Source of the DNA: Candidatus Iainarchaeum sp.
GTDB lineage: Archaea > Iainarchaeota > Iainarchaeia > Iainarchaeales > GCA-2688035
Direction of reading: 5' to 3'
NCBI GenBank assembly: GCA_028713935.1
Contig: JAQTNI010000003.1
Location: forward strand, 1-32,000
Length of the DNA: 32,000 nucleotides
In this document: piece by piece, positions 1 to 32,000 of the stretch
Layout of the letters: each line of letters begins with the position of its first letter
How positions within the stretch are numbered: position 1 is the first letter of the stretch
Notes under the pieces: generated by a model
What the model saw: only the letters and a program-made list of their open reading frames with translations
What the model was told of the DNA's origin: nothing
Databases searched by the model: none
Made by a program: the position numbers and the translations under genes

Positions 1-294
1 GTAGGTAACAGTTTCGCCTGATTTTTGTTTTTCGTGGATTTCCCTGTGGCAATTGGCACAAACCAAAATTGTTTTTTCAGCTTCGTTTAAGATTCTTTTC
101 CAGCCGCGATTATAAATTTTTGAAATCTGGCCTTCTTTGCTTGAATCTTTGTGGTGAAATTCAAGTGCAGTAATACACTTTGCATAACCGCAAAGCGAGC
201 ATTTGCCGCCTTTGAGTTCAACCAATTTTTGCTTATATTTTCTGCGCCTTTCGGAAATATAATTTGCCACTTTCTTTTTGTCTTTCCACGTCAT
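1..294 (-). CDS. HNH endonuclease family protein, N-terminal 98 codons (continues past the left edge; absent from the ORF track because no stop lies in the window)
   Basis: ATG at 294-292. My translation is MTWKDKKKVANYISERRRKYKQKLVELKGGKCSLCGYAKCITALEFHHKDSSKEGQISKIYNRGWKRILNEAEKTILVCANCHREIHEKQKSGETVTY. It shows the CxxC ... HH ... CxNCHxxxH spacing of HNH (His-Me finger) nucleases. Confidence 0.75.
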   Translation of the reverse strand, partial: MTWKDKKKVANYISERRRKYKQKLVELKGGKCSLCGYAKCITALEFHHKDSSKEGQISKIYNRGWKRILNEAEKTILVCANCHREIHEKQKSGETVTY

Positions 295-302
295 TCAAAT
301 CA

Positions 303-333
303 ACGGGCGCTCTACCTACTGAGCTACTTGGGC
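303..333 (-). tRNA. tRNA 5'-half-like fragment (acceptor 5' strand, D-arm and 5' strand of the anticodon stem only)
   Basis: Reverse complement 333->303 reads GCCCAAG TA GCTC AGTAGGTA GAGC G CCCGT, a canonical cloverleaf 5' half. What follows is TGATTTGA-ATG(HNH). No ACGGG stem partner, T-arm or CTTGGGC acceptor strand occurs in the remaining 302 nt. Confidence 0.5.
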
Positions 334-614
334 ATAAATTATCCAAGCTCACTAAGTAATTATTTGCTTAAAGTTTATTAAGCTTTGTTGAGCCTGTTTT
401 TTCTGGTTTGCACAGGCTACATTAAAAAAAAGGAAAATTAAAAACCTTTGAAATAAAAATGCAAAATTATTTTCAAAACCATTTAACATTTTCTCGCAAG
501 AAAATTTTAATTTGATATTAATACCCTGCCAATAAAAATAATTTTTTTAAGCCTTAAAAACAATCAAAAAAAACAGCCCTAAAATCGCTCAAAAGCGTTC
601 AATTTTCCTTTTTT

Positions 615-2111: not shown

Positions 2112-3512
2112 TTAAATAAAGAACGGCACTGCGTTCAGGATTAGCAGTGCAAGCACAAACCAGAAAAAGATTTTGCTGAGAGTTTTTTCCTTTTCTTCTT
2201 TTGAAGCTTTCCAAAAGCCAAGATAGGGCACTATTAGGGCTTTTGCTATTTTGCCGCCATCAAAAGGCTCTAACGGCAGAAAGTTTGCAATTGCAACCAA
2301 AAAGTTTAACAGAAAAAACCAGAACAAAAAGCTATAGATGAAGCTGATTGCAAAAATAAAGTAAACATAGGCCTGTGAAAATTTTGCGCCTGTTTTTAGT
2401 TTGTCTTCAACACTATAACCCTGATAACCCATTTCATCTGGCGTGATTGCAATTGTTTCCGCTGCTGAATTCTCATCTTTTTGTACTGTAAGCTGGTAAG
2501 GGTTTTTTCCAATTTCCTTGATTTTTGCTGACCAGCCATTTGCGGATTCAACTTTTATTCCATTAATTTCTTTTACAATCATTCCCGCTTCAAGCTTTCC
2601 AAAAGCAGGGCTTGGAGTGATTCTTCCGCACAGATTAATGTTCTGGTCAACACTGGAAATTGCCACACTGCCAATGTTATTGTTGTATTCCAAAAAAGAA
2701 AATGTTATTATTGAAGGGAAAACAAAAAACACAAAAAGCCCGGTTATTACTGCACAAAAAAGGTTTGCAGTTGGCCCAGCGGAAAAAACCCTTAATTGGT
2801 CCCTTTCATTTGTATGCTTTAATTGCTCTTCATCAGGCTCTACAAAAGCGCCTATTGGAAGAATTCCAAGCAATAAGAGGCCAGCGCTTTTGATTTTAAT
2901 GCGTGCTTTGCGTGCAAGCGCTCCATGCATTCCTTCATGGACAAGAAGAATAATTAAAAGAGAAATCCAGCCATGCAATGGCACTGTAACAGGGAAATTT
3001 GGCAATGAAACTCCTGGAAGGAGAGGCGCGACTCCTGGGCAGGATTTTTGGCCCGCAAGAGCGCTTGTAATCACAAATTCAGAGTAAGCCGCAAGCATTA
3101 CAACCATGAAGCCGGCAAAACCCATTACTCCAAAGCCAAGTGACATGAAAAAATTGTATTGTTCAATGAAAGGGTTTGAAAGCAATACTGAAAAGCTTAA
3201 ATTGAAAAGAACAAAAAGAATTGCAGTGCTTGCAATAAAAAGAAGAATTCTTGGGATTAACCTGAGTTTTTTTCCAACCAAAAAATCAATTGCAATTGCA
3301 CCAAAGCCAAGCACAAGCCCAATGTCAGCAAAGGCATTCAGGATTTTTTCATGCTTTGAAATTTTGTCAAGCAAAGGCAAAAAACGCGTTGTCTTCACCA
3401 TTGAGCCAATGTAAAAAGTCTGGGCTTTTGCAAATTTTTTCAGCAAAAAAGTTGTGACTACAAAAAAAGCAAGTATTCCAATTATCCAGAGTGCTATTTC
3501 AACGAGTTCCAT
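2112..3512 (-). CDS. Site-2 protease family (M50) membrane metalloprotease with internal PDZ-like segment
   Basis: HExxH in a TM helix (VHEGMHGALARK), distal NFLPLEPFDGGK motif, and multiple hydrophobic helices. Confidence 0.85.
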   Translation of the reverse strand: MELVEIALWIIGILAFFVVTTFLLKKFAKAQTFYIGSMVKTTRFLPLLDKISKHEKILNAFADIGLVLGFGAIAIDFLVGKKLRLIPRILLFIASTAILFVLFNLSFSVLLSNPFIEQYNFFMSLGFGVMGFAGFMVVMLAAYSEFVITSALAGQKSCPGVAPLLPGVSLPNFPVTVPLHGWISLLIILLVHEGMHGALARKARIKIKSAGLLLLGILPIGAFVEPDEEQLKHTNERDQLRVFSAGPTANLFCAVITGLFVFFVFPSIITFSFLEYNNNIGSVAISSVDQNINLCGRITPSPAFGKLEAGMIVKEINGIKVESANGWSAKIKEIGKNPYQLTVQKDENSAAETIAITPDEMGYQGYSVEDKLKTGAKFSQAYVYFIFAISFIYSFLFWFFLLNFLVAIANFLPLEPFDGGKIAKALIVPYLGFWKASKEEKEKTLSKIFFWFVLALLILNAVPFFI

Positions 3513-3528
3513 GCCACCACAAAAAAAG

Positions 3529-3915
3529 TCATTCCTGTTTTTCAGTTAACTTTACCTGAAGGGCTTTTTCCAGTTTTGAAATCAGTTTGTCAGAAGGCTT
3601 TATGCTTTCAGATTCAATCCTGTGCAGCAAGGAAACAGGTTCAAAAATTTTTTTTCCAAGTTCCTCAAAAGTCAGGCCCTGTTTCTGCCTTGCCATTGAA
3701 ATAATTTTTCCAAAACCTTTTTTCAAATCCAAACCCAAATCAAATGCGCCTGCTTTCCTGATTTCCATTTCCTCAAAATCAATTTTTTTTGTTTTTTGGG
3801 GAGGGGCCTCTTCAATTCCAAGGGAAGAGCACTCTTCGCAGGCAAGCATTTCAACGCCTTCAAGCAAAATCTTTTTCAAATTGCCGGAAGGCCTGCCGCA
3901 AACCTCGCAGAGCAT
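3529..3915 (-). CDS. mbf1: Archaeal MBF1-like protein (N-terminal zinc ribbon plus XRE-type HTH)
   Basis: CEVCG...CEEC zinc ribbon, then an HTH segment RQKQGLTFEELGKKIFEPVSLLHRIESE. Lies 16 nt upstream of the S2P gene on the same strand. Confidence 0.8.
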   Translation of the reverse strand: MLCEVCGRPSGNLKKILLEGVEMLACEECSSLGIEEAPPQKTKKIDFEEMEIRKAGAFDLGLDLKKGFGKIISMARQKQGLTFEELGKKIFEPVSLLHRIESESIKPSDKLISKLEKALQVKLTEKQE

Positions 3916-3975
3916 ATATCTTTAAAAAAAAGAAATTCTTAATAAAGAATTGCAATGAAAAGGAACAAGGCTAAT

Positions 3976-4329
3976 TCAATAAAATTCCAGAATATCTCCT
4001 GTTCCCATGTCCTGTTTTTCCACTCCTTCAACAGTAATGGAAACAAGCTTGCCAGCGCCCGCTTCAACAACATTTGCCCTGCGCCTTTCAATGTTCAAAA
4101 CTTTTCCTGTTTTTTCCCCTGCATTAAAAGACAGGCCTGGCTTCAAAACTCCTTCTGAAACAATTCCAACAACAACAATGCCAATTCTTGGAATCTGGTA
4201 AGAACCCCTCACTTCCAGCTTTGCAGTGCCCCTCATTGGGCCATCCCAATTGGAAGTTCCCTGTTTTGAAACAGGCTTTTCCTCGCTTTTTCCGCCAAAA
4301 ATCTTTCCAAACAAACCCACAAAAAACAC
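3976..4329 (-). CDS. Small stand-alone protein resembling translation-GTPase domain II (EF-Tu/EF-1alpha beta-barrel)
   Basis: The pattern IGIVVVGIVSEGVLKPGLSF..GEKTGKVLNIERRRANVVEAGAGKLVSITVEGVEKQDMGTGDIL mirrors the G.V..G.V..G.l..G....k.V.si.....v..A.aG..v.i.l.gv...d...GDil consensus. No G domain is present. Confidence 0.5.
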   Translation of the reverse strand: MFFVGLFGKIFGGKSEEKPVSKQGTSNWDGPMRGTAKLEVRGSYQIPRIGIVVVGIVSEGVLKPGLSFNAGEKTGKVLNIERRRANVVEAGAGKLVSITVEGVEKQDMGTGDILEFY

Positions 4330-4414
4330 CTCTCAACCTAAAATTCATTAAAATAAGTGAAAAGAAAAATAAATAACCTTATCTGAAAAAGGGTTTTTGC
4401 TGCAAAGAAGGCAA

Positions 4415-5818
4415 TTATTTAATAGCTTTAACAATTTTTTTAATATTGCTGAAATCTTTAAATAAATAATCTGGTTTTTCTTTTTTCAGCCTTTCAACTG
4501 TTTCATGGCCAGTCGCTACAGCAATTGACTTTACTCCCGCTTCTTTTGCACAAACAATGTCGCGAATAGTGTCACCTATAATATAAATATCCTCTTTTTT
4601 GAATTCGCGCCCTGTTTCTTGCTTTGCACTTTTCATTGCAATCGGAACCAATTCGCTTCTTTTGCTTGTTGCATCACCAAATGCCCCGACCTTGAAATAT
4701 TTCCAAAGCCCAACATTTTTTAGTTTTGCCTGCGCCTTATCAAAAGTATTTCCTGTAAGCAAGCCAACAACCTGTTTTTCCTCAACCAGCCTCTTAATTA
4801 ACTTTTCAACGCCACGGATTTTTTGCAATTGCACTTTTTGGATTGCTTCTAAAACAATACTTCCAATATCTTCAAGTGCAGGCAAAAAACGCGCGTCTTT
4901 TTCGGGTTCTTTTACTCCCTTGCTCTGAAGATGGTCAATTAAAATGTCCCTGTCAGTTCTTCCTTTCAAAACCACATCGTTTCTGTCTAAGTTAATGCCA
5001 AAATGCTTCTTGGCAACTGCTTTCCAATAATCAAATTCCACAGAACCAATTGGAAGCAAAATACCATCAATATCAAATAAAACCAGTTTCATTGGATTCC
5101 CTTTATCAAGCCTGCTTTTGTCACGCAATCCTTTCATCATTTCTGAAACAGAAACTTTTTTGCTTTTTGAAAGCTTTCCATACATTGACTTTGTTTTCCC
5201 GTATTGAATGCCAAATTTTGCCAGGTCTTTTTTTAATTGTTCAAAAGAGCGGAACCAAATTGCCTTCATTCCAAGCTTTTGCGCTGTTTCAATGCATTTT
5301 TCCTGGTCATCAATAAACAGGCATTCTTCAGGTTTTAACCCAAGCTTTTGAATTGCAATCTCATAAATTTCTTTTTCAGGCTTCAAAATCCCCAATTCAT
5401 GCGATAACACAAGCACTTCAAATGGCTTTAACCAGCCTTTTTTCAGATGGTTTGGAAAATTGACTGGATCTGAATTTGAAATCATTCCAAGCCTGTAATT
5501 TTTTTTCAATTTTTTTACAAGCCCTGCCATTTTTGGGTCTAGTTTCCAGTTGTTTGTCCAGAGCTTTACAAGCTGTTTTTCCTGTTCAATTGAAATCTGC
5601 ACATTAAAAATTCTCCTGAAAAATTCCTGAATAGTAATTTTGCCGCTGTTAAACATTCCATCAACAGTAACCCCTTTTTCCGCTGAAACAATTTTGCTTA
5701 TCCCAAGAACCCTAAAAGCCTTTTTTGTAAAAACAGCAAAACTGCCTTTTAGATAAACACCGCCAGCATCAAACAAAACAGCCTTAATCACCAAACCACC
5801 AAAAGAATTGTTTCTCAT
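4415..5818 (-). CDS. Tandem HAD-superfamily hydrolase fusion (two complete HAD modules)
   Basis: Module 1 has AVLFDAGGV (DxG variant), ISNSD and FIDDQ. Module 2 has LVLFDIDGIL, LLTGNT and IIGDTIRDI. ATG at 5818 is preferred over the upstream start in the track. Confidence 0.75.
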   Translation of the reverse strand: MRNNSFGGLVIKAVLFDAGGVYLKGSFAVFTKKAFRVLGISKIVSAEKGVTVDGMFNSGKITIQEFFRRIFNVQISIEQEKQLVKLWTNNWKLDPKMAGLVKKLKKNYRLGMISNSDPVNFPNHLKKGWLKPFEVLVLSHELGILKPEKEIYEIAIQKLGLKPEECLFIDDQEKCIETAQKLGMKAIWFRSFEQLKKDLAKFGIQYGKTKSMYGKLSKSKKVSVSEMMKGLRDKSRLDKGNPMKLVLFDIDGILLPIGSVEFDYWKAVAKKHFGINLDRNDVVLKGRTDRDILIDHLQSKGVKEPEKDARFLPALEDIGSIVLEAIQKVQLQKIRGVEKLIKRLVEEKQVVGLLTGNTFDKAQAKLKNVGLWKYFKVGAFGDATSKRSELVPIAMKSAKQETGREFKKEDIYIIGDTIRDIVCAKEAGVKSIAVATGHETVERLKKEKPDYLFKDFSNIKKIVKAIK

Positions 5819-5872
5819 GCTTATTAACATTTTACTGAGTTTTTTGCAGGCAAGCAAAAGTTAGGCAGAGTT

Positions 5873-6229
5873 TTAAGTGCTTGCCAGTTGGATATCTAAC
5901 GAAGTATAAAGCGCTTTTAGATAAATCATTTGCTTTTCTTTGATTTTTTCTATTAAGTCGTATTTTTTCAGCAAGTTTGCGTCTCTGCTTATTGCTTCTT
6001 GTTTTCTTTTTAGTTCATAGGCTATTTCGCTTATTGTTTGCCTCTCGGCCTGGTGCTTAATTAGATGCCTGAGAAGTTCAAATCTTTTTGGCGAAAGAAT
6101 TTTGTATAAGTCTTCAGTGGAATCCAAAAAAAGAGTGTGCGTATTTTTTTTTGCTTTTTGTGGATTGCCAAAAACAGCCCTAAGCTCTTTTTTTTTATCC
6201 GCTCCAACCATAATTATCAAATTATCCAT
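5873..6229 (-). CDS. Winged-helix DNA-binding protein, putative antitoxin partner of the upstream gene
   Basis: LSPKRFELLRHLIKHQAERQTISEIAYELKRKQEAISRDANLLKKYDLIE is a wHTH. The N-terminal region ending in FLDSTEDLYKILSPKR resembles COG4190/HVO_A0114-type regulators, from my recollection of that family. Confidence 0.6.
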   Translation of the reverse strand: MDNLIIMVGADKKKELRAVFGNPQKAKKNTHTLFLDSTEDLYKILSPKRFELLRHLIKHQAERQTISEIAYELKRKQEAISRDANLLKKYDLIEKIKEKQMIYLKALYTSLDIQLAST

Positions 6230-6269
6230 TTTTATCCCCTTGAATTTTAAATCAATTGTCTATTAATAT

Positions 6270-6288
6270 TATAACCCCATAGGTTATA
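6270..6288. promoter_or_regulatory. 7-bp inverted repeat TATAACC-n5-GGTTATA between the toxin-like and HTH genes (possible operator)
   Basis: tataaccccataggttata read directly from the sequence. Lies 41 nt upstream of the ATG at 6229. Confidence 0.3.
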
Positions 6289-6316
6289 TAAATAGTTTGT
6301 TGTGTTTTAATGCCCC

Positions 6317-6718
6317 CTATTTTTCCTTGAATTTTGCCAGATATTGCCTCCAATTTTTTTCTATATTGCCAACAAATTCTTGCATTGTATCATAACTCAT
6401 TTTTTTATTCAACTTTTTCTTTTCGTGATGATTGTAGAAAAACTGGTGCACATGCACTTCTTCCCGGGCTGAACAATCGTAACGTACTATTTCCTTTGGC
6501 TTCTCGCCAATTATCAGGCAATAGCTTACTGAAAACTCTTCCAGGTTTTTGCCATCTGAAGTGAAAACAAAGCGAATAAAGACCTGGTTCTTTTTTTCCT
6601 TGTCAAGATACCAACTGTAACTTAGTTGCCTTTCCTTTTCAACCATGCAAAAAACCAGCCATTGATTATTCTCCAACAATGGCGTAGTTTCTTTTAATGG
6701 TTTGTGTTGTTCCGACAA
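6317..6718 (-). CDS. DUF6516/TumE-like protein (putative toxin of a type II TA pair)
   Basis: The core IVRYDCSAREEVHVHQFFYNHHEKKKL ... MSYDTMQEFVGNIEKNW matches my memory of the R-Y-D-n..H.H...... pattern of that family. TTG start. Gene pairing with a wHTH protein. Confidence 0.45.
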   Translation of the reverse strand: MSEQHKPLKETTPLLENNQWLVFCMVEKERQLSYSWYLDKEKKNQVFIRFVFTSDGKNLEEFSVSYCLIIGEKPKEIVRYDCSAREEVHVHQFFYNHHEKKKLNKKMSYDTMQEFVGNIEKNWRQYLAKFKEK

Positions 6719-6924
6719 TCAGCGATTAGCCTTGGCGATTCCGTTTTTGCCTTCACTAGAAAGAATCAGAAGTTATAACCACGCCTAAGCATTGGCACGT
6801 TTATTGCTGTTTCCCTACTCCAGTTATATAGCAACCCAATTTAAACTTTTAGCAGGAGATTGTGTATTGACAAATTGTTGAAGAAATGCCAGAACAAAAA
6901 GGGAAGTGATAAATCATACCGCCA

Positions 6925-7263
6925 TTGGGAAAACTATTGCCAATTACAGTTGGAAGTGCAATCTGTTGGTTTGCTGTTTTGATTTTACTACTTATCTATG
7001 CCTCTGGCGCATTTGAGTTCAAAGTTTTATTGCCTATCGGCTTCCTTTTCTTCTTAGGCATTTTCTTTTGGATTGACGACGACTTGCACAAAAAAACCCA
7101 ACTGCGGGAAAAACCCAGCGTCCACGAAAGGATATTTTATGAAAAAAACAGAAACGAAGCGCTGGGCAGGGCAGAAGTTCAAAAATATATAATCGCTGCT
7201 ATCGCTCTTGGCTTTTTATTATTGACAATCATAGTTTATGCCCCAAAAATTCCGTTCAATTAA
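6925..7263 (+). CDS. Small membrane protein (about 3 TM), function unknown
   Basis: Hydrophobic helices AICWFAVLILLLIYA, LLPIGFLFFLGIFFWI and IIAAIALGFLLLTIIVY. TTG start. First gene of a tightly spaced operon. Confidence 0.5.
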   Translation: MGKLLPITVGSAICWFAVLILLLIYASGAFEFKVLLPIGFLFFLGIFFWIDDDLHKKTQLREKPSVHERIFYEKNRNEALGRAEVQKYIIAAIALGFLLLTIIVYAPKIPFN

Positions 7264-7288
7264 CAAAAAAATTTGTAAGTGATTTTTT

Positions 7289-7588
7289 ATGGGAGTAGGA
7301 ACAAAACAAATACAAGAAATGGAAAAACAAAACAAAATATTGCTTGAAACAAATGCCAAAAACGAGAAACAATGGAGCTTTGAACAATTATTGCTAATGT
7401 ACCTTGCGCTTCTGGCGGCAGTTTTTGGAATTGTTGCAGGATTAGCACAAGCCACATTTACAAAAACCCTTGAATTGTACCCTTCTCTTGTTTTTGTTTT
7501 CTTGGGCGGGTTGGCAATTACAATTATTGTATTGGCAATCGCCTTGAAAAAAATAGCCAAAGAAATAGACAAATTTTTTAAAGTGTGA
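7289..7588 (+). CDS. Small membrane protein (2 TM), function unknown
   Basis: Helices LLLMYLALLAAVFGIVAGLA and LVFVFLGGLAITIIVLAIAL. Starts 25 nt after the previous stop. Confidence 0.5.
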   Translation: MGVGTKQIQEMEKQNKILLETNAKNEKQWSFEQLLLMYLALLAAVFGIVAGLAQATFTKTLELYPSLVFVFLGGLAITIIVLAIALKKIAKEIDKFFKV

Positions 7589-7595
7589 TTTTTGA

Positions 7596-7994
7596 ATGCA
7601 AAAAACTGGAAAAGGCGCAGAAATTGAAATCATAACGCAATGGCTAAAACAAGCAAAAAAACAGTTTCCTCAAAACAAAGGCTGGAAAATAATGTCTTCT
7701 GAATCATACGCAGGGAATATTGTGGGTACAAAGGGTTACCCTGACTTTATGATTTTCAACAAAAAAACAAAAGAACTGGTTTTCATAGAATTAAAAGCCA
7801 AGACGCATGGTTATCATTCCTTTCAGAAACAAACAATAAAAGTGCTGATGACTGCACGTAAAAAGAAAGCAAAACTCATAACTTTTGACTGGAATGAAAA
7901 AAAGAAAAAATATTCCAAATTACATGAGGAAGATGCACTAAAAGTAGAACCAGATGGAAACTACGAACGTGCAGAGAACATTGGTTTTTTGTGA
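7596..7994 (+). CDS. PD-(D/E)XK nuclease of the VRR-NUC / Hjc-like type
   Basis: GYPDFMIF ... ELVFIELKAK ... FQKQ gives the G-x-P-D ... (I/V)-E-x-K ... Q signature. Starts 7 nt after the previous stop. Confidence 0.6.
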   Translation: MQKTGKGAEIEIITQWLKQAKKQFPQNKGWKIMSSESYAGNIVGTKGYPDFMIFNKKTKELVFIELKAKTHGYHSFQKQTIKVLMTARKKKAKLITFDWNEKKKKYSKLHEEDALKVEPDGNYERAENIGFL

Positions 7995-8003
7995 GGAAAA
8001 AAA

Positions 8004-8510
8004 GTGATTGAAATGAAAAACAGCCCTGCAAAACAAAAGAATTTTCTGTTTAGTTATGTTATTGACCATGACGGAGACCCCGATTTTGTAGGCAAAAAAC
8101 TGGTTTTGGGAACACAAAACTGTAAGGCATACATGCGCCCGCTCGTGCATAAAAACGATTGGATTATTGCAACGCTTGGAAAAAAATTTCCCACAGGAAA
8201 AACAAACAGTGACTTTACCAGGGCAAATAAAGATTATTGGCAATATTTGATTTGTGCAATGCAAGCAACAGAGAATCCCAAGCGGGGCAAAATTTATTCA
8301 AACAATTTTTATGTCTTTTTTGCAAAACCCGTCAAACTAAAAAGCGAAAAAAGCAATTTTCTTGCTTTAATCAAAAGGGGGCGAAGGCACAAAAAAATCC
8401 CTCTTGAAACAAAAAAGGTTCAAAAATTTTTGAGCTGGATAAAACACCAAAAACATAGCAGGGGGAAAACTCAACAAGCAAAAACCTGCAATCAAATATG
8501 GGCCCAATAA
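8004..8510 (+). CDS. Hypothetical protein, tentatively Nmad2-like (nucleotide-modification-associated domain 2)
   Basis: The N-terminus FSYVIDHDGDPDFVGKKLVLGTQNCKAYMRPLVHKNDWIIATLG is colinear with my recollection of the Nmad2 pattern Y-V-v..D.GFAPNPF.G.CTLA.CKP.IR.....GDWvvG. Divergent and unverified. Confidence 0.4.
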   Translation: MIEMKNSPAKQKNFLFSYVIDHDGDPDFVGKKLVLGTQNCKAYMRPLVHKNDWIIATLGKKFPTGKTNSDFTRANKDYWQYLICAMQATENPKRGKIYSNNFYVFFAKPVKLKSEKSNFLALIKRGRRHKKIPLETKKVQKFLSWIKHQKHSRGKTQQAKTCNQIWAQ

Positions 8511-8515
8511 AACAG

Positions 8516-9205
8516 CTATTGCTCTGTTGGCAATTTTGTGCCAAATGTTTCTGTAATATACTGTGCAGTCTTTTGTGAAAGGGATTTCAAGCCAGATACT
8601 GCAGTAGCGATAAGCTCAATTGCTTCTTTACCATTAGATAAAATCATTTGCTTTTCATTGTTATTTCGAGGGAGACATAATTTATTTTTCATTAAAAATT
8701 CAATCCAAGAGTTTGCCAAATCAACTGTATCTTGAATCAGATATAACGCTTTTTTTAAATCAAAGGAGGATTTGTTATCTATTTTATTGTCAAGGACTCT
8801 GGCAAAATAATCTGCATCAAGATTGGGAATTTTAATGGCAGGTACTGACTGGAATGAAAGAGTTTGCAAGTAGGAATCTGTAATGCTGGGACGTACCGAT
8901 TCCCCAAAAACAGTTAGTATCCCCCCAGAGACATAATCCAGTTTTACCAATAACAGTTGTAAATATTGTTCTTGTTTCTTTCTATGGTTAAAAATTTTGA
9001 ACAGCAAATCTATTCGCCATAGTCCAACAGCAAAAACTATTGCAAAAATAGCCAGCAAACCTTGTGCTTTGTTAACTTCCCCTAAGAAAATTTGTTCCTT
9101 GTTAAAAAAAACTGCCAACAAATAAAACAAAGTCGGGAAAGACATCATTATAAAAATTGGAATTAATTCTTTTTTTTGCTGTGCAATAAAATCAACATAA
9201 GACAT
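8516..9205 (-). CDS. Membrane-anchored protein (2 N-terminal TM plus about 150-aa soluble domain), function unknown
   Basis: TM helices IPIFIMMSFPTLFYLLAVFF and LLAIFAIVFAVGLW. No motif recognised in the C-terminal domain. Confidence 0.5.
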   Translation of the reverse strand: MSYVDFIAQQKKELIPIFIMMSFPTLFYLLAVFFNKEQIFLGEVNKAQGLLAIFAIVFAVGLWRIDLLFKIFNHRKKQEQYLQLLLVKLDYVSGGILTVFGESVRPSITDSYLQTLSFQSVPAIKIPNLDADYFARVLDNKIDNKSSFDLKKALYLIQDTVDLANSWIEFLMKNKLCLPRNNNEKQMILSNGKEAIELIATAVSGLKSLSQKTAQYITETFGTKLPTEQ

Positions 9206-9236
9206 GCTCTGTGCCCCCTTGTAATAAAAGTTCGGC

Positions 9237-10031
9237 TTAAAATATTTTTGAATTTGGTTTTTTTCTTTGAAGCATTCCAGCCATGCTTTTTATTCTTAAT
9301 AAATCATTGTTGCTGAAATCGGTTGTTCCTTGACTATAAAGCTTTTCCGTTATTACTTCTTTTTTTTCTGTTTCTGTTTTTGCCAGTTGATAATCTTCTG
9401 AACTAAGAAGCTCTTTTGCAATGCCTTCAAAGAGTTTTGTTTTTTCTTGCAACTTCGCAAGATTTATTTTTGCGATAGCCCCTTTGATTGTTGGCTCTTC
9501 CTTAAGTCTTTCAAAATAAGTGCGAATGGAATGCCAACGAGAGTGCTCTGAATCAATTGCAGCAATTTTTTTAAGCTTTGGAATTTTTTCAAAAACAAAA
9601 AATTGGAAAGGCGCTTTATCCAAAAAAAATGTATCCTCTATTCCTTGGTTTTTTTCCAAGAACTCTGATAAAACAGTAAGCAAGCTTTCTTTTTGGATGC
9701 CTGCTTTTTCCAAATCCTGTTCAATTGTCAAGTCGGAAAATAATTCGCTCGCATCTTCTGATTCATGCAGTTGTTTCAACTTTGCAAGCTTTTCATCGGA
9801 AACTATCTGTTCTTCAAAACCAAAATACGTTTGGCTCTCTTTGTCAAAAACAATTTTGTTGGTTTTAACAGGAACTTCTTCCCCATTTTCATCTTCAATA
9901 GTACTGGGAAAAGAAAAAAAGTATTCTTTATTTTCAGTTTTTTTAACAAGCTTTTCAAAATCCAATTTTTCTTCTAACCAAATTGTTTCGCGCATTAATT
10001 TTTCGCTGGGAATTATAGGCCTAAAATCCAT
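9237..10031 (-). CDS. Acidic soluble protein, function unknown
   Basis: 264-aa ORF rich in E/K/D with no recognisable motif. Lies 31 nt upstream of 8516-9205 on the same strand. Confidence 0.5.
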   Translation of the reverse strand: MDFRPIIPSEKLMRETIWLEEKLDFEKLVKKTENKEYFFSFPSTIEDENGEEVPVKTNKIVFDKESQTYFGFEEQIVSDEKLAKLKQLHESEDASELFSDLTIEQDLEKAGIQKESLLTVLSEFLEKNQGIEDTFFLDKAPFQFFVFEKIPKLKKIAAIDSEHSRWHSIRTYFERLKEEPTIKGAIAKINLAKLQEKTKLFEGIAKELLSSEDYQLAKTETEKKEVITEKLYSQGTTDFSNNDLLRIKSMAGMLQRKKPNSKIF

Positions 10032-10251
10032 TGTTTCTTACCTTAATAACTATCCCTACTGAGGTTTTTAAATGATTTTTGAGTAGGTTTCCGCTATTCT
10101 TTTTTGGTTTTTTCAATAAAAACCGCTTTAAAGCTAACTTTTAAACTGTAAACAGTTGCTTTTAAAAAGAAGGCTTTTATATTGGGAAACACTTGTTATT
10201 TTAAAAAAACAGCAGAAGGAAGTATTATTTTATAACGAGGGTGATTTTGGT

Positions 10252-10410
10252 ATGGCTAAACCAATTAGAGCAACTCCAACGCTTATTGGTGAAGAGGCAA
10301 TTCGCTTTTTGGATAAAATGAGGAGAACGGATTCTGAGAACAGGCTAAGCCCGTCAGACAAAATTTTGGTCGAACTAATGCATAAGAACGAAAAATTGTT
10401 CAGGGTTTAA
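10252..10410 (+). CDS. Small (52 aa) hypothetical protein
   Basis: ATG at 10252 preceded by GAGGGTGAT (SD-like) 8 nt upstream. Sequence is MAKPIRATPTLIGEEAIRFLDKMRRTDSENRLSPSDKILVELMHKNEKLFRV. Its 3' end overlaps the convergent GNAT gene by 11 nt. Confidence 0.4.
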   Translation: MAKPIRATPTLIGEEAIRFLDKMRRTDSENRLSPSDKILVELMHKNEKLFRV

Positions 10411-10999
10411 TTTTCTCCTCTTCTTTTATTATATTTACCAAATTTTTGTACATGTGAACCACATTGCTTTTTTCTTTGGTTTTCAAAATTTCAAAACCAT
10501 TCTTTTTGTAAAATCTTTCAGGCTTTAAGCGCTCTGGGATTATCTCATCATTTTTTGCATCAACTGTAATAAACCTGCAAGCTGCAATCCTATGTATTTT
10601 CACTGCACGGTCTACTGCAAAAGCAATCATTTTTGTTCCAATGCCCTTCCTGCAAAAAGATTTTTGAACTCCCATCCGGCCTATTTTTAAGGCGGGCAAT
10701 GACTTGTAATTAATGCCACGCCTAATCATTTCATCTTTTTGAACCTTGTCCAAATTAATCGCATCAGCACAAATAGTAATGTAGCCAAGAATTTGGTGGT
10801 ATTCGCGAGACATCCACAAAAAAGTCCTGTTCACGCCTTCCTTTTCCTGCTTTAACGCATCTTCCTTAAGAAACGCTTCAATTTCCTTAATTTCGGATTC
10901 AAACCCGCTAATAAAAACACTTGAGGAGTCCCCCAACTCAACAATTTCAATATCCTCTCCAGGATACGGAATTTTATCTTGCTCAATTGAATCTTGCAT
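10400..10999 (-). CDS. GNAT family N-acetyltransferase, TacT/KacT-toxin-like
   Basis: Acetyl-CoA binding segment LPALKIGRMGVQKSFCRKGIGTKMIAFAVDRA, C-terminal FYKKNGFE, and an N-terminal FISGFESEIKEIEAFLKEDALKQEKEGVNRTFL reminiscent of TacT-type toxins. ATG at 10999. Confidence 0.7.
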   Translation of the reverse strand: MQDSIEQDKIPYPGEDIEIVELGDSSSVFISGFESEIKEIEAFLKEDALKQEKEGVNRTFLWMSREYHQILGYITICADAINLDKVQKDEMIRRGINYKSLPALKIGRMGVQKSFCRKGIGTKMIAFAVDRAVKIHRIAACRFITVDAKNDEIIPERLKPERFYKKNGFEILKTKEKSNVVHMYKNLVNIIKEEEKIKP

Positions 11000-11151
11000 G
11001 CACAAATCCTATATTAAAGTATTTAAAAATCCTGCGACCTTTCTTGTCATGGCACTAGAACTTGTTGTTCCCACATTATCTTCCCTTCACAGCAATTGTT
11101 TCTTTTGGCAACAATCATTTTGCAAGCAATAAAAAAATTAGAAAATTTTAG

Positions 11152-11226
11152 TGCCCTCACTGGGATTTGAACCCAGGTCATCAGCTTGAAAGGCTGAGGT
11201 CCTTAACCGGTCTAGACCATGAGGGC
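11152..11226 (-). tRNA. tRNA-Glu (anticodon UUC)
   Basis: Reverse complement folds as GCCCTCA TG GTCT AGACCGGTTAA GGAC C TCAGC CTTTCAA GCTGA TGAC CTGGG TTCAAAT CCCAG TGAGGGC A. It is a full 75-nt cloverleaf with no encoded CCA. Confidence 0.9.
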
Positions 11227-29512: not shown

Positions 29513-32000
29513 TCAGCTGTAATTCTGGGATTCTTCTGTTATTGTAACATCGTGGGGATGGCTTTCGCGAAGCCCTGCAAGCGTTATTCTGCGCCATTTT
29601 GTTTTTAACCTGAGGTCATCAATTGTACCTGCCCCAACCATTCCCATTCCGCTTCTTAAGCCTCCAAGAAGCTGGAAAGACACTTCGCCTATTGTGCCCT
29701 TGAATGGGACAACTCCTTCAATGCCTTCGGGGACAAGTTTTGCTTCTTCTGCCTTGTCCTGGAAATACCTGTCTGTTACATCGGAGTCTTTTCTTTCTGT
29801 CATTGCCCCAAGCGAGCCCATTCCCCTGTATTGCTTGAGTTTTCTTCCGCCAAAAAAAATCATTCTGCCGGGTGTTTCCTCGCAGCCAGCAAAAAGCTTT
29901 CCAACCATTACGCTGCTTGCGCCTGCTGCTATTGCCTTTACAATGTCTCCTGAATACCTTATGCCGCCGTCTGCAATTATTGGGCAATTGTGCTTTTCAG
30001 CCGCTTCTGCGCATTCTGCTATTGCAGAGAACTGCGGAACTCCTACGCCTGCAATGATTCTTGTGGTGCAATTGTGCACTGCCAAGCGATTTGCAACATA
30101 AGAATTGTCTTCCTCAACTTCCAAGTTATAAACATTCATGTCCACCTGCTGTTCTTTTACGGAGTCAATTGAAAAATAAATATAGTTGCTGTCAGACCAA
30201 GATTGTTGTTTTTTTGTAATAGTTTCCAATGGCTTTGCATCAAGGCCAAGATCTTTCAAAAATGAATCATATTGCTTTCCAGATACTCCAAGAATATAAG
30301 TGTCTGCCCAATTCTGGTTCTTTGGCTTATGGAGCCCCAAGGAAGGCAAATAGCCCAATCTGGAAATGATTTCCGTAATCTGGAATGCCAGAGAGGGGGA
30401 GGTTGTTTTATATCTCAATCGCCCTGCCTCTGTAAGGCAGCCGTCACCATTTATTGCCCCAACCAAAAAAGATTTTAGAAGGGTAGAATCTTGGTTTAAA
30501 ACAAGCTCGGGGGCCTTTTTGTTGTTCGCGCCAAGCACGAATAAAGATTCAAAAAAACCAGCAATAATATTTGAAAACACATGCACAGTTGCACTATTCC
30601 TTTTACTGCTGAATATTACTTTCGATTTGGAATAGCCAAAAACTGTTTCAACCAGCTTTATTATTTCTGAATGGTATTCTTTTTCTTCTGCAGAAAATGC
30701 GAAGCAGAGCTGCCTGTTGTTGGCATTTCCCATTACATAGCCTTCTGCCGCAAAGTATCCAAACAGTTTCATTAGATTCGCATCCAGAGAAACAAACCTG
30801 TTTATTTTGTTTGGCTCAATTTCGCGGGAATAACTGGTTTCATTCAAATAAAAATTGATTTCCTGATTCAGCTGCATGTCAAAAGATTTTCTGCCATGGA
30901 CAATGTTTGCAACTATTCTCGGCGTTGTGGAAAATTTTTCAGCAAGCACCGGGAATGACTCCTTGTTCTGGTTAAAACCAATTTTGCCAGCCCAAATTTT
31001 TGCATTATCCCATTCATAATTCGGAAAAAATTCTAAAAGGTCAAAAGTAATTCCTGGGCCTTCAATTTGCCTTGATTCTGCTTTTGGAACAGCAACAATA
31101 TCTTCCGGCTCCAGGAGCCCGGCCGGAATCCAGGACAAACCCTTATTATGCTTGCCTTTCCCAAAAAAATATTTTGCACCAAATTTCTTTTTCTTATCCA
31201 CGGGGTAAAAAAAATGCATCCCATAAACAGGGTGATTCGGAGTTATAAATAATTCGCCTGGAGTTCCGCCGGTTTTTATTTTAAGCATTTTCCCCTTGTG
31301 CCTGCGAACATATTTTTTTGTTACCATTCGAGACCTGCCCCTGTGAGTGATAACAAAATCGCCAACTGCTATGTCCGCTATTGGCTTTACAGAATAATCT
31401 GCCATCAAAACTTGCGCATTCCCATCAAGGCATATGCTTCCCGGCCCAATTCCCACTTTTATTGCGTCTGCTCCCGCTGAAATCAGGTCTTCTGTTGCCT
31501 CTGCTGTTGCAACATTTCCCGCAACAACCTGAATTTCAAATTCTTTTTTGATTTTTTTTAATGCATCAATTACAATTTTGTTATGGCCATGGGCAGTGTC
31601 AAGGACTATTGCATCAACTTCTGCTTCAACAAGTTTTTTTGCGCGTTCAAATTCTTTCTGGCTTGGCCCTACTGCTGCGCCTACCAAAAGCCTGCCCTGC
31701 TTGTCTTTCAGGGCAAGGGGAAATTTTTCTTTTTTTTGGATGTCTCCTGCAGTAATCAGGCCTTTGAGCCTGCCATCTGAATCCACAATTGGCAATTTTT
31801 CTATTTTGTGCTTGTGGAGTATCTGCTTTGCCTCTTCTGTTGAAACAAATTTGTCAACTGTTACAAGGTTTTTTGTCATGATTTCTGAGACCTTTTTTTG
31901 AGGGTTATTCTCTAACCACAAATCCCTCTGGGTTACTATGCCGACAAGCCTGTTGTTTTTGTCAAGCACTGGGAAGCTTCCGATGCCGCTGCTTTTCATC
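29513..32000 (-). CDS. guaB: IMP dehydrogenase, 5'-truncated by the window edge, interrupted by an intein
   Basis: A CBS pair ([40 protein letters not shown]). Catalytic loop GIGPGSI-[intein][13 protein letters not shown]. Also [14 protein letters not shown] and [10 protein letters not shown]. Confidence 0.9.
30071..31432 (-). mobile_element. 454-codon intein with LAGLIDADG homing-endonuclease domain inside guaB
   Basis: Starts with Cys ([10 protein letters not shown]) and has block B ITPNHP. Dodecapeptide motifs are [10 protein letters not shown] and [10 protein letters not shown]. Ends ...NRLAVHN and is followed by the +1 Cys. Coordinates were checked codon by codon: TGC at 31432-31430, AAT at 30073-30071, and TGC at 30070-30068. 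Confidence 0.85.

Follow-up and report, generated by a model that had tools for sequence, protein, structure and literature searches.

A tRNA-Asn gene with two predicted bulge-helix-bulge introns, the first of which carries an HNH endonuclease frame, at the edge of a contig assigned to Candidatus Iainarchaeum

The stretch of DNA analysed here, referred to below as the window, comprises positions 1 to 32,000 of contig JAQTNI010000003.1 (assembly GCA_028713935.1, Candidatus Iainarchaeum sp.), and its first few hundred nucleotides (nt) contain, on the minus strand, the beginning of a transfer RNA gene together with an open reading frame (ORF) for an HNH nuclease. From 333 to 304 the minus strand reads GCCCAAG-TA-GCTC-AGTAGGTA-GAGC-G-CCCG, which corresponds to tRNA nt 1-30; TTGATTTGA follows directly on the 3' side, and an ATG at 294..292 then starts a 98-codon frame that is still open where the window ends at position 1. 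An earlier note on this DNA had described a tRNA 5' half at 333->303 whose cloverleaf stops in the anticodon arm. Its assignment of 333..304 stands, but T303 is the first base of an intron, and the anticodon stem CCCGT that it proposed is one base too long, since the exon ends at G304 (nt 30). The cloverleaf does not stop there either: a micro-exon at 12..6, with the anticodon GTT at 9..7, lies within the window and had been overlooked. The segment 333..1 is very probably the 5' four-fifths of a functional three-exon tRNA-Asn(GUU) gene that has two bulge-helix-bulge (BHB) introns and an HNH homing-type ORF in the first of them.

The portion of the gene inside the window consists of exon 1, the whole of intron 1, the micro-exon with the anticodon, and 5 nt of intron 2. 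Its predicted features are given below, where BHB 1 is the motif that joins the ends of intron 1, MFE stands for minimum free energy, and related loci are denoted by numbers prefixed with L.

304..333, minus strand: exon 1 of tRNA-Asn(GUU), nt 1-30, containing the acceptor 5' strand, the D-arm, nt 26 and anticodon-stem nt 27-30
13..303, minus strand: intron 1, 291 nt, at the non-canonical position 30/31, from the splicing rule and the 31:39 covariation
1..294, minus strand: HNH endonuclease ORF, 98 codons in the window, ATG 294..292, from homologue comparison
6..12, minus strand: micro-exon ACTGTTA, tRNA nt 31-37, anticodon GTT at 9..7, from the splicing rule and L177
1..5, minus strand: first 5 nt (CCTAC) of intron 2, canonical position 37/38, which also pair with the D-loop in the BHB 1 outer helix
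310..320, minus strand: BHB 1 outer helix, 5' strand, tRNA nt 14-24, pairing with 11..1, from MFE folds and covariation
306..309, minus strand: BHB 1 central 4-bp helix, 5' strand, CGCC, tRNA nt 25-28, pairing with GGCG 18..15
303..305, minus strand: BHB 1 5' bulge of 3 nt, C305 G304 / T303, which holds the 5' splice site
297..302, minus strand: BHB 1 inner helix, 5' strand, TGATTT, intron nt 2-7, pairing with AAATCA 24..19
19..24, minus strand: BHB 1 inner helix, 3' strand, AAATCA, from the covariation model and the window fold
13..18, minus strand: BHB 1 central helix, 3' strand, GGCG (18..15), and the first two bulge bases AA (14..13)
between 13 and 12, minus strand: 3' splice site of intron 1, from the covariation model and MFE folds
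367..373, minus strand: CTTTAAG, candidate archaeal TATA element, -40 to -34 from tRNA nt 1, conserved in L002 and L009
357..365, minus strand: AAATAATTA box, -32 to -24, present, not conserved in L002

The AAATAATTA box had been put forward in the earlier note as a TATA-like element; it is present at the distance given, but it is not conserved even in L002, the closest relative, and it is the CTTTAAG box that recurs instead. A box of the TTTWAW type is found at about -32 to -43 in 9 of the 13 loci examined, and it may serve as a promoter element.

The end of the gene, which lies outside the window, was read from L002, used here as its stand-in. The homologue of the HNH fragment in L002 (P0001) is 97% identical and has 99 amino acids, so that the window lacks just one codon and the stop, and the gene order of L002 matches that of the window (M50 peptidase, ftsZ). 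After the ORF stop L002 continues with ACGGAGATCGGATGGTC-GGTGG-TTCAAGT-CCACC-CTTGGGC-G, that is, with a T-arm and an acceptor strand complementary to GCCCAAG. The T-arm and the acceptor 3' strand are missing from 1..302, exactly as had been reported, and by comparison with L002 they are located immediately outside the window. The neighbouring M50 peptidase, looked up as an exact protein match, led only to a Logan contig of 1.8 kb, which does not reach the locus. L003 and L007 share the layout of L002, with acceptor stems that differ and yet are complementary (GCCTCGG/CCGGGGC and GCCCCTG/CGGGGGC). With nine more loci, obtained from a genome scan and from the contigs of further homologues, these make up a set of 12 full-length relatives which belong to Iainarchaeum and to one Micrarchaeota metagenome-assembled genome (MAG) and whose HNH proteins are 65-97% identical. 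In 12 of 12 the 3' part of the tRNA is contiguous after the ORF and begins 14-20 nt past the anticodon micro-exon.

A single splicing rule, stated here in tRNA numbering, describes all of these loci:

exon 1: tRNA nt 1-30, 30 nt
intron 1: between nt 30 and 31, 287-301 nt
micro-exon: R31 followed by CUGUUA (nt 32-37), 7 nt
intron 2: between nt 37 and 38, 14-20 nt (25 nt in the 5'-truncated L012; 17 nt in L002)
exon 3: A38 to G73, 36 nt

When the rule is applied in silico, removal of the introns restores a standard cloverleaf in all 12 spliced sequences, each a 73-nt tRNA which default ARAGORN calls as tRNA-Asn(gtt). For comparison, the 30/31 junction of an intron-less tRNA-Asn gene would read ...GAGCGCCCG/GCTGTTAACCGG... 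The canonical 37/38 intron had no place in the earlier note, whose second reading, in which a large intron bearing an ORF splits a tRNA at a non-canonical position, was otherwise essentially right: the position is 30/31, and the junction is a BHB supported by covariation. ARAGORN, which had been named there as a check, calls with default settings nothing in the window except a tRNA-Glu at 11151-11226, and in particular nothing at the HNH/tRNA locus. An Rfam search that included permissive thresholds likewise returned no family at the window end (1-900), only noise. The gene would therefore be missed in annotation, and because default tRNA finders miss it, Iainarchaeota and Micrarchaeota genomes may be wrongly scored as having no tRNA-Asn.

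The cloverleaf itself can be evaluated by the covariation of its stems. In an alignment of 14 sequences, 95.6% of the cells are paired, compared to 25-52% when the partners are slid, and eight pairs have changed on both sides, including 28:42 and 31:39. The last of these spans both introns and is either A-U or G-C in 13 of 13 sequences. The intron-bearing arrangement is shared by 13 assemblies that are independent of one another, and all of its stems show compensatory changes; this recurrence argues that it is not due to chance. Comparison of the sequences in this way establishes the structure of the gene and its covarying helices. Pairing of CCCGT with an ACGG(A) just past the stop codon was also considered and was rejected: it would force a long variable arm, the partner is missing from L007, and the covariation of 28:42 and 31:39 points instead to the NCGRA block beside the variable loop as the pairing strand.

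Each of the two pairs of junctions is predicted to fold into a BHB, the substrate of the archaeal splicing endonuclease EndA, of which broad-specificity types have been reported in DPANN lineages (PMC5829648). In BHB 1 the central helix is formed by nt 25-28 with the GGCG just 5' of the 3' splice site; it is 100% paired in 14 sequences and includes the compensatory changes A26-U (L171) and U27-A (L168). It is flanked by two bulges of 3 nt, C29 G30 / N (CG/U) and N N / R31 (AA/R). The inner helix, of 6-9 base pairs (bp), joins both ends of the intron by pairing intron nt 2-10 with the 9 nt before GGCG; it is 82.5% paired with seven pairs changed on both sides, and in L003 and L007 it reads GGTCGAAG:CTTCGATC in place of the window's TGATTT:AAATCA. 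An outer helix of 11 bp, revealed by an unconstrained MFE fold of the L002 precursor that reproduces BHB 1 (z -3.6), pairs nt 14-24 of the D-loop and D-stem with the micro-exon and the first six bases of intron 2. It is 95.4% paired compared to 23-67% with slid partners, and three of its pairs (16:i4, 17:i3 and 19:i1) have changed on both sides. BHB 1 is likewise seen in the unconstrained MFE fold of the window's own 333 nt (z -2.0). BHB 2 is a standard canonical motif made up of the anticodon stem, a central helix in which nt 32-35 pair with ACGG, GCAG, GCGG or ATGG (96% paired), and a 3-nt bulge that ends in A38. Taken together, the central helices of both motifs and the inner helix of BHB 1 are 89.7% paired, compared to 31-43% when slid, with nine two-sided changes.

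Since intron 2 supplies part of the outer helix of BHB 1, and since the D-stem and the anticodon stem are in competition with this helix, intron 1 is likely to be the first to leave. Splicing would then proceed in three steps. Intron 1 would be excised while the outer helix tethers the 7-nt exon for the ligase; the anticodon stem would form once intron 1 has been removed; and the formation of this stem would create BHB 2, from which the canonical intron would be removed.

The identification of the ORF as an HNH nuclease gene whose ATG follows 9 nt after the tRNA segment is borne out. Matches to the Pfam HNH families are weak and below the cut-off; the match to phrog_2255, annotated 'HNH endonuclease', has an E value of 1.6e-25, and a CxxC...HH...N...CxxCH motif is conserved in 18 homologues, in which C32, C35, H47, H48, N81, C82 and H83 are invariant and C79 and H87 nearly so. 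An AlphaFold2 (AF2) model of the protein has a predicted local distance difference test score (pLDDT) of 82, and nearly all of its fold matches in the PDB, weak as they are (best E 0.05), are to HNH or related nucleases. The PDB sequence and fold searches returned only weak and generic HNH matches, which are uninformative on DNA specificity. The ORF starts 9-11 nt past the 5' splice site of intron 1 (with GTG in L012) and is intact in 14 of 14 loci. Its median proportions of nonsynonymous and synonymous differences in these loci are 0.16 (pN) and 0.81 (pS), and the ratio of the corresponding rates, dN/dS, does not exceed 0.135 in comparisons with a finite dS and is 0.09 for the window against L002, a comparative pattern which establishes that the frame is selected and indicates strong purifying selection. 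In most loci the ORF continues across the anticodon micro-exon to a stop codon within intron 2; the stop lies in intron 1 in L010, L011, L175 and L012 and in exon 3 in L177, and in L009 the tail of the ORF is frameshifted. The conserved ...SGEAVTF tail is attributable to the GGCG block and the anticodon loop rather than to protein function. It would thus be a by-product of RNA elements, with a nuclease core that probably ends near residue 88 and is encoded wholly within intron 1.

The ORF is probably translated. The bases just 5' of the ATG resemble a Shine-Dalgarno core (GTTGAT in the window, GGTGAT in L171). In the window and in L002 intron 1 and the frame end on exactly the same base, and circularisation of the intron would bring a stop two codons past the junction (GAA/TTG ATT TGA/TAA; window 15..13 and 303..295). 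The excised and circularised intron could possibly serve as the messenger RNA.

The wider family of the protein is associated with tRNA-Asn genes in other hosts. This association was evaluated in viral loci (L178-L257, from IMG/VR) and in metagenome loci (L088-L167), which are the best 80 matches listed. The best viral homologues are 45-60% identical to the protein and sit inside phage-like tRNA arrays, and 74 of the 80 have a tRNA gene within 1.5 kb. A tRNA lies within 150 nt in 53 viral loci, and in 30 of these 53 the nearest is tRNA-Asn(GTT), directly downstream and on the same strand, with the aligned ORF ending at -3 to +72 nt relative to the tRNA start. The enrichment of tRNA-Asn near as opposed to far from the gene is significant in the viral loci (Fisher p = 1.5e-14), and the genome and metagenome loci have the same bias (p = 9e-5), which links the family to tRNA-Asn in this selected sample. 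No tRNA 5' fragment occurs upstream of the HNH gene in these phage-type loci, where the gene is free-standing. The metagenome scan with the HNH alignment produced matches of 43-60% identity which are mostly phage-like, and no further intron-bearing archaeal loci were present among the matches listed. The chief argument, an indirect one, for a protein that recognises the DNA of the tRNA-Asn gene is the tie of the family to tRNA-Asn across hosts; the protein is most likely a homing-type endonuclease directed at that gene.

Loci in which the introns and the HNH gene are combined differently bear on how the arrangement might have arisen. L177 has intron 1 and lacks intron 2, with GCTGTTAACCGG contiguous with the 3' strand of the anticodon stem. 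In the same locus (250-420), in which the HNH stop falls in exon 3, an insert of about 80 nt occupies the T-loop (TTCAAAT / ... / CCTTC). In L169 and L170 (L169 2600-3200) the HNH gene is upstream of the tRNA-Asn gene and reads into it, and the tRNA-Asn of L169 seems to have, besides the canonical intron, a 30/31 intron of 13 nt that contains no ORF and whose central helix (CAAC:GTTG) is compensated, an alternative parse of this gene also being available. The HNH and tRNA-Asn pair of L169 is located directly downstream of a gene for a class IIb aminoacyl-tRNA synthetase (Asn/Asp type by Pfam). In L013, from the AR10 Iainarchaeum, a free-standing HNH gene lies about 95 nt upstream of a tRNA-Asn gene (3370-3500) which has a D-loop intron of about 39 nt and the canonical intron and no 30/31 intron; its 27:43 is a normal A-U pair, unlike that of the genes with a 30/31 intron. 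The introns are separable, because L177 has intron 1 alone and L169 appears to hold an ORF-less 30/31 intron.

The HNH gene in the intron probably descends from free-standing relatives upstream of tRNA-Asn, such as those of phage arrays and of two Iainarchaeum relatives. Phage tRNA arrays, L013 and L169 provide examples of the free-standing position, and L169 apparently also one of the ORF-less mini-intron. On this basis it is tentatively proposed that the protein is an active tRNA-Asn-specific homing endonuclease whose gene moved from a free-standing upstream position into a pre-existing 30/31 mini-intron. The gene structure could also be exactly as described and the protein a homing endonuclease no longer, or never one, having been domesticated for a host function such as that of a general nuclease or of a maturase-like helper that assists its own precursor to fold or splice. 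The low dN/dS, which extends across lineages with saturated synonymous sites, would be expected of such a protein, as would the absence of degenerate copies from the 14 loci and an order of ftsZ, a small gene and tRNA-Asn in six loci including the window, which suggests vertical inheritance rather than recent invasion. Free-standing relatives, however, are scattered through phage tRNA arrays in the manner typical of selfish nuclease genes, and the position of the gene relative to tRNA-Asn varies, being intronic in 13 assemblies and upstream in L013 and L169, which implies movement. EndA-type splicing, moreover, requires no maturase to our knowledge. Domestication is accordingly regarded as rather unlikely.

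Several observations weigh against a homing-type ORF in an intact two-intron gene. The exon 3 attributed to the window is that of L002, chosen for its gene order and its 97%-identical HNH protein. The anticodon-stem pair 27:43 is mismatched (C.A, U.C or C.U) in 12 of the 13 intron-bearing sequences, and the central helix of BHB 2 is imperfect in L014, the Micrarchaeota MAG (3290-3310). No empty 30/31 site was found in close relatives, the shared ftsZ neighbourhood makes the ORF look vertically inherited, and long-term purifying selection would fit a domesticated function as well as active homing. Finally, the viral and metagenome loci in which the tie to tRNA-Asn was measured are a selected sample. 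As regards the mismatched pair, nt 27 (window 307) always pairs with the GGCG block of the intron in spite of the mismatch with nt 43, and the splice motif of the intron may constrain the sequence of the mature tRNA at this position. As regards L014, the ACAGGTG block before A38 fits a 4-bp helix with a 3-nt bulge worse than the corresponding block of the other loci, which makes the exact 3' splice site of intron 2 uncertain there.

The remaining alternatives concern the structure of the gene. In its intron mode (-i), ARAGORN interprets the same span of L002, L003 and L007 as a tRNA with one long intron after nt 33 and a long variable arm. This one-intron model was rejected because it assigns inconsistent identities, Lys(ttt), Leu(gag) and Val(tac), to three orthologues, while the two-intron rule yields Asn(gtt) in 12 of 12 and also accounts for the covariation of 28:42 and 31:39 and for the conserved GGCG and ACGG/GCAG blocks; L177, in which intron 2 is missing, has the Asn anticodon loop contiguous with the stem. 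The model is thus very unlikely to be correct.

It is comparably improbable that the window holds a dead 5' fragment, left where a mobile element bearing the HNH gene disrupted a tRNA gene or gave rise to a partial copy of it at the element's border, the third reading of the earlier note. A tyrosine-recombinase (Phage_integrase) gene does lie beside the locus in L002 (10386-11603) and L007 (6396-7601), and L172 has an extra 3' half of a tRNA-Asn downstream. The integrase gene, however, sits directly 3' of a complete tRNA-Asn gene in both loci, and L003 has the HNH intron and no integrase; the HNH gene is for this reason not part of the integrase element, and the position of the integrase 3' of the tRNA in L002 and L007 implies that the tRNA is also an integration target. 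In addition, the base pairs of the acceptor stem, T-stem and anticodon stem that link the two 'halves' have changed in a compensatory manner, which is not expected of a dead gene; the gene is intact and its stems covary, and this refutes the reading for the 5' part. A tRNA fragment at an attachment (att) site was rejected as well, since the 5' part pairs, with compensatory changes, with a 3' part about 350 nt away, and no tRNA repeat was found in 10 kb of L002. The first reading of the note, a split tRNA of the Nanoarchaeum type whose 3' half is encoded elsewhere and joined in trans, might be suggested by the end of the window before the 3' part and by the split tRNAs for which DPANN archaea are known, but it is extremely unlikely, because all 12 full-length relatives, among them the one with a 97%-identical HNH protein, carry a contiguous 3' part. 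Just as implausible is a self-splicing group I or group II intron that carries a homing endonuclease, of the kind found in bacterial tRNA genes. Such introns often contain HNH genes, and the best PDB sequence match, although weak (E 0.005), falls on the HNH domain of a group II intron protein; on the other hand, the complete intron (L002 9850-10450) matches no Rfam intron family at E values up to 10, the ORF occupies all but about 10 nt of the intron and so leaves no room for a ribozyme core, the junctions form a covarying BHB motif, and the host is archaeal.

The surroundings of the gene are consistent with this picture of a host related to Candidatus Iainarchaeum. The HNH matches come from Iainarchaeum and Micrarchaeota MAGs, the closest genomes being Candidatus Iainarchaeum MAGs, and the genes of the window are archaeal in type (a FEN1-type XPG nuclease, a UbiA-family prenyltransferase and also FtsZ), which identifies the host as a DPANN archaeon close to Candidatus Iainarchaeum. 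In L172 (~3340-3400) the second tRNA-Asn 3' half, which has no intron and spans the anticodon loop through the 3' end, follows the gene closely on its downstream side, and the surroundings of L002, L007 and L172 look like integrated elements, or their remnants, that use tRNA-Asn as attachment site. For the far end of the L002 element, no tRNA-derived direct repeat was found in 10 kb downstream. Elsewhere in the window (29513-31999, minus strand) an intein that includes a LAGLIDADG endonuclease domain splits an IMP dehydrogenase (IMPDH) gene, recognised by a Pfam IMPDH match in two pieces together with Hint/Intein_splicing and LAGLIDADG_3, and this is a second selfish nuclease element in the window. 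The stretch from an MBF1-like helix-turn-helix (HTH) gene to tRNA-Glu(UUC), at ~3900-11150 of the window and 1800-5900 of L002, is wholly different in the two, containing DUF7718, Nmad2 and GNAT genes in the former and DUF3795, Bro-N and a DDE transposase in the latter, and this stretch beside tRNA-Glu appears to be a variable island.

The individual components of the gene have all been described before, namely BHB introns as such, tRNA introns that are non-canonical or multiple, and homing endonuclease genes within BHB introns of archaeal rRNA (PMC4090602, PMC4033280, PMC5829648, PMC6125680). Archaeal tRNA introns are described as short, under 100 nt, with no mention of coding ones (PMC4033280), and according to reviews their mechanism of transposition is unknown. 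No literature on an HNH-coding BHB intron in a tRNA, or on any protein-coding one, was found in a search with incomplete coverage of journals. If the protein is indeed a homing endonuclease, intron 1 would be the first example in a tRNA gene of a BHB intron that is mobile and codes for a protein, and a concrete DNA-level mechanism for the gain and spread of non-canonical archaeal tRNA introns would be at hand. The relatives capture a gene beside the tRNA, an apparent ORF-less mini-intron and a gene within the intron, so that homing can be tested as a route of intron gain, and the locus thereby offers a testable lead on the origin and movement of archaeal tRNA introns. The packing of information is unusual in any case, since a protein frame crosses the anticodon loop of its own host tRNA, the two introns are structurally interdependent and the middle exon has 7 nt.

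Comparison with known systems brings out both the familiar and the unfamiliar features of this arrangement. Archaeal rRNA BHB introns encode LAGLIDADG homing endonucleases such as I-DmoI and I-PorI. They resemble the present case in that an intron spliced by an EndA-type enzyme in the gene of a stable RNA carries a nuclease ORF, but here the host gene is a tRNA gene, the nuclease is of the HNH rather than the LAGLIDADG class, and the ORF extends over an exon into a second intron, which in turn contributes to the BHB. Free-standing HNH endonuclease genes are found in phage tRNA clusters, for example in phage T5. These genes share the family (45-60% identity; phrog_2255) and the link to tRNA-Asn, but they are intergenic, usually ending within about 70 nt of the tRNA-Asn start or overlapping it by 3 nt, whereas here the HNH gene is inside the tRNA gene and is predicted to leave by RNA splicing.

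The occurrence of homing endonuclease genes in archaeal BHB introns is documented (PMC6125680), as are tRNA genes with multiple introns, some of them non-canonical, in Thermoproteales, Methanopyrus kandleri and ARMAN/DPANN archaea (PMC4090602, PMC5829648, PMC3239211, PMC4033280). The present gene is similar to these multi-intron genes in combining one non-canonical with one canonical BHB intron and in coming from lineages known for disrupted tRNA genes; it differs from those described in the size of its middle exon, just 7 nt, and in having a coding intron of 287-301 nt where theirs are non-coding and short (under 100 nt, PMC4033280). Group I introns in the anticodon loops of bacterial and phage tRNAs, some with homing endonuclease genes (PMC3984707), likewise interrupt a tRNA gene with an intron able to carry a nuclease gene, but they are ribozymes located in the anticodon loop, while the large intron described here lies in the anticodon stem, has BHB junctions and carries no ribozyme signature. 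The split tRNAs of Nanoarchaeum equitans (PMC2237900, PMC3218864), finally, share with this gene a DPANN host, a 5' part that ends near the anticodon arm and a BHB-like joining helix, but in the gene described here all of the pieces are contiguous on one transcript unit.

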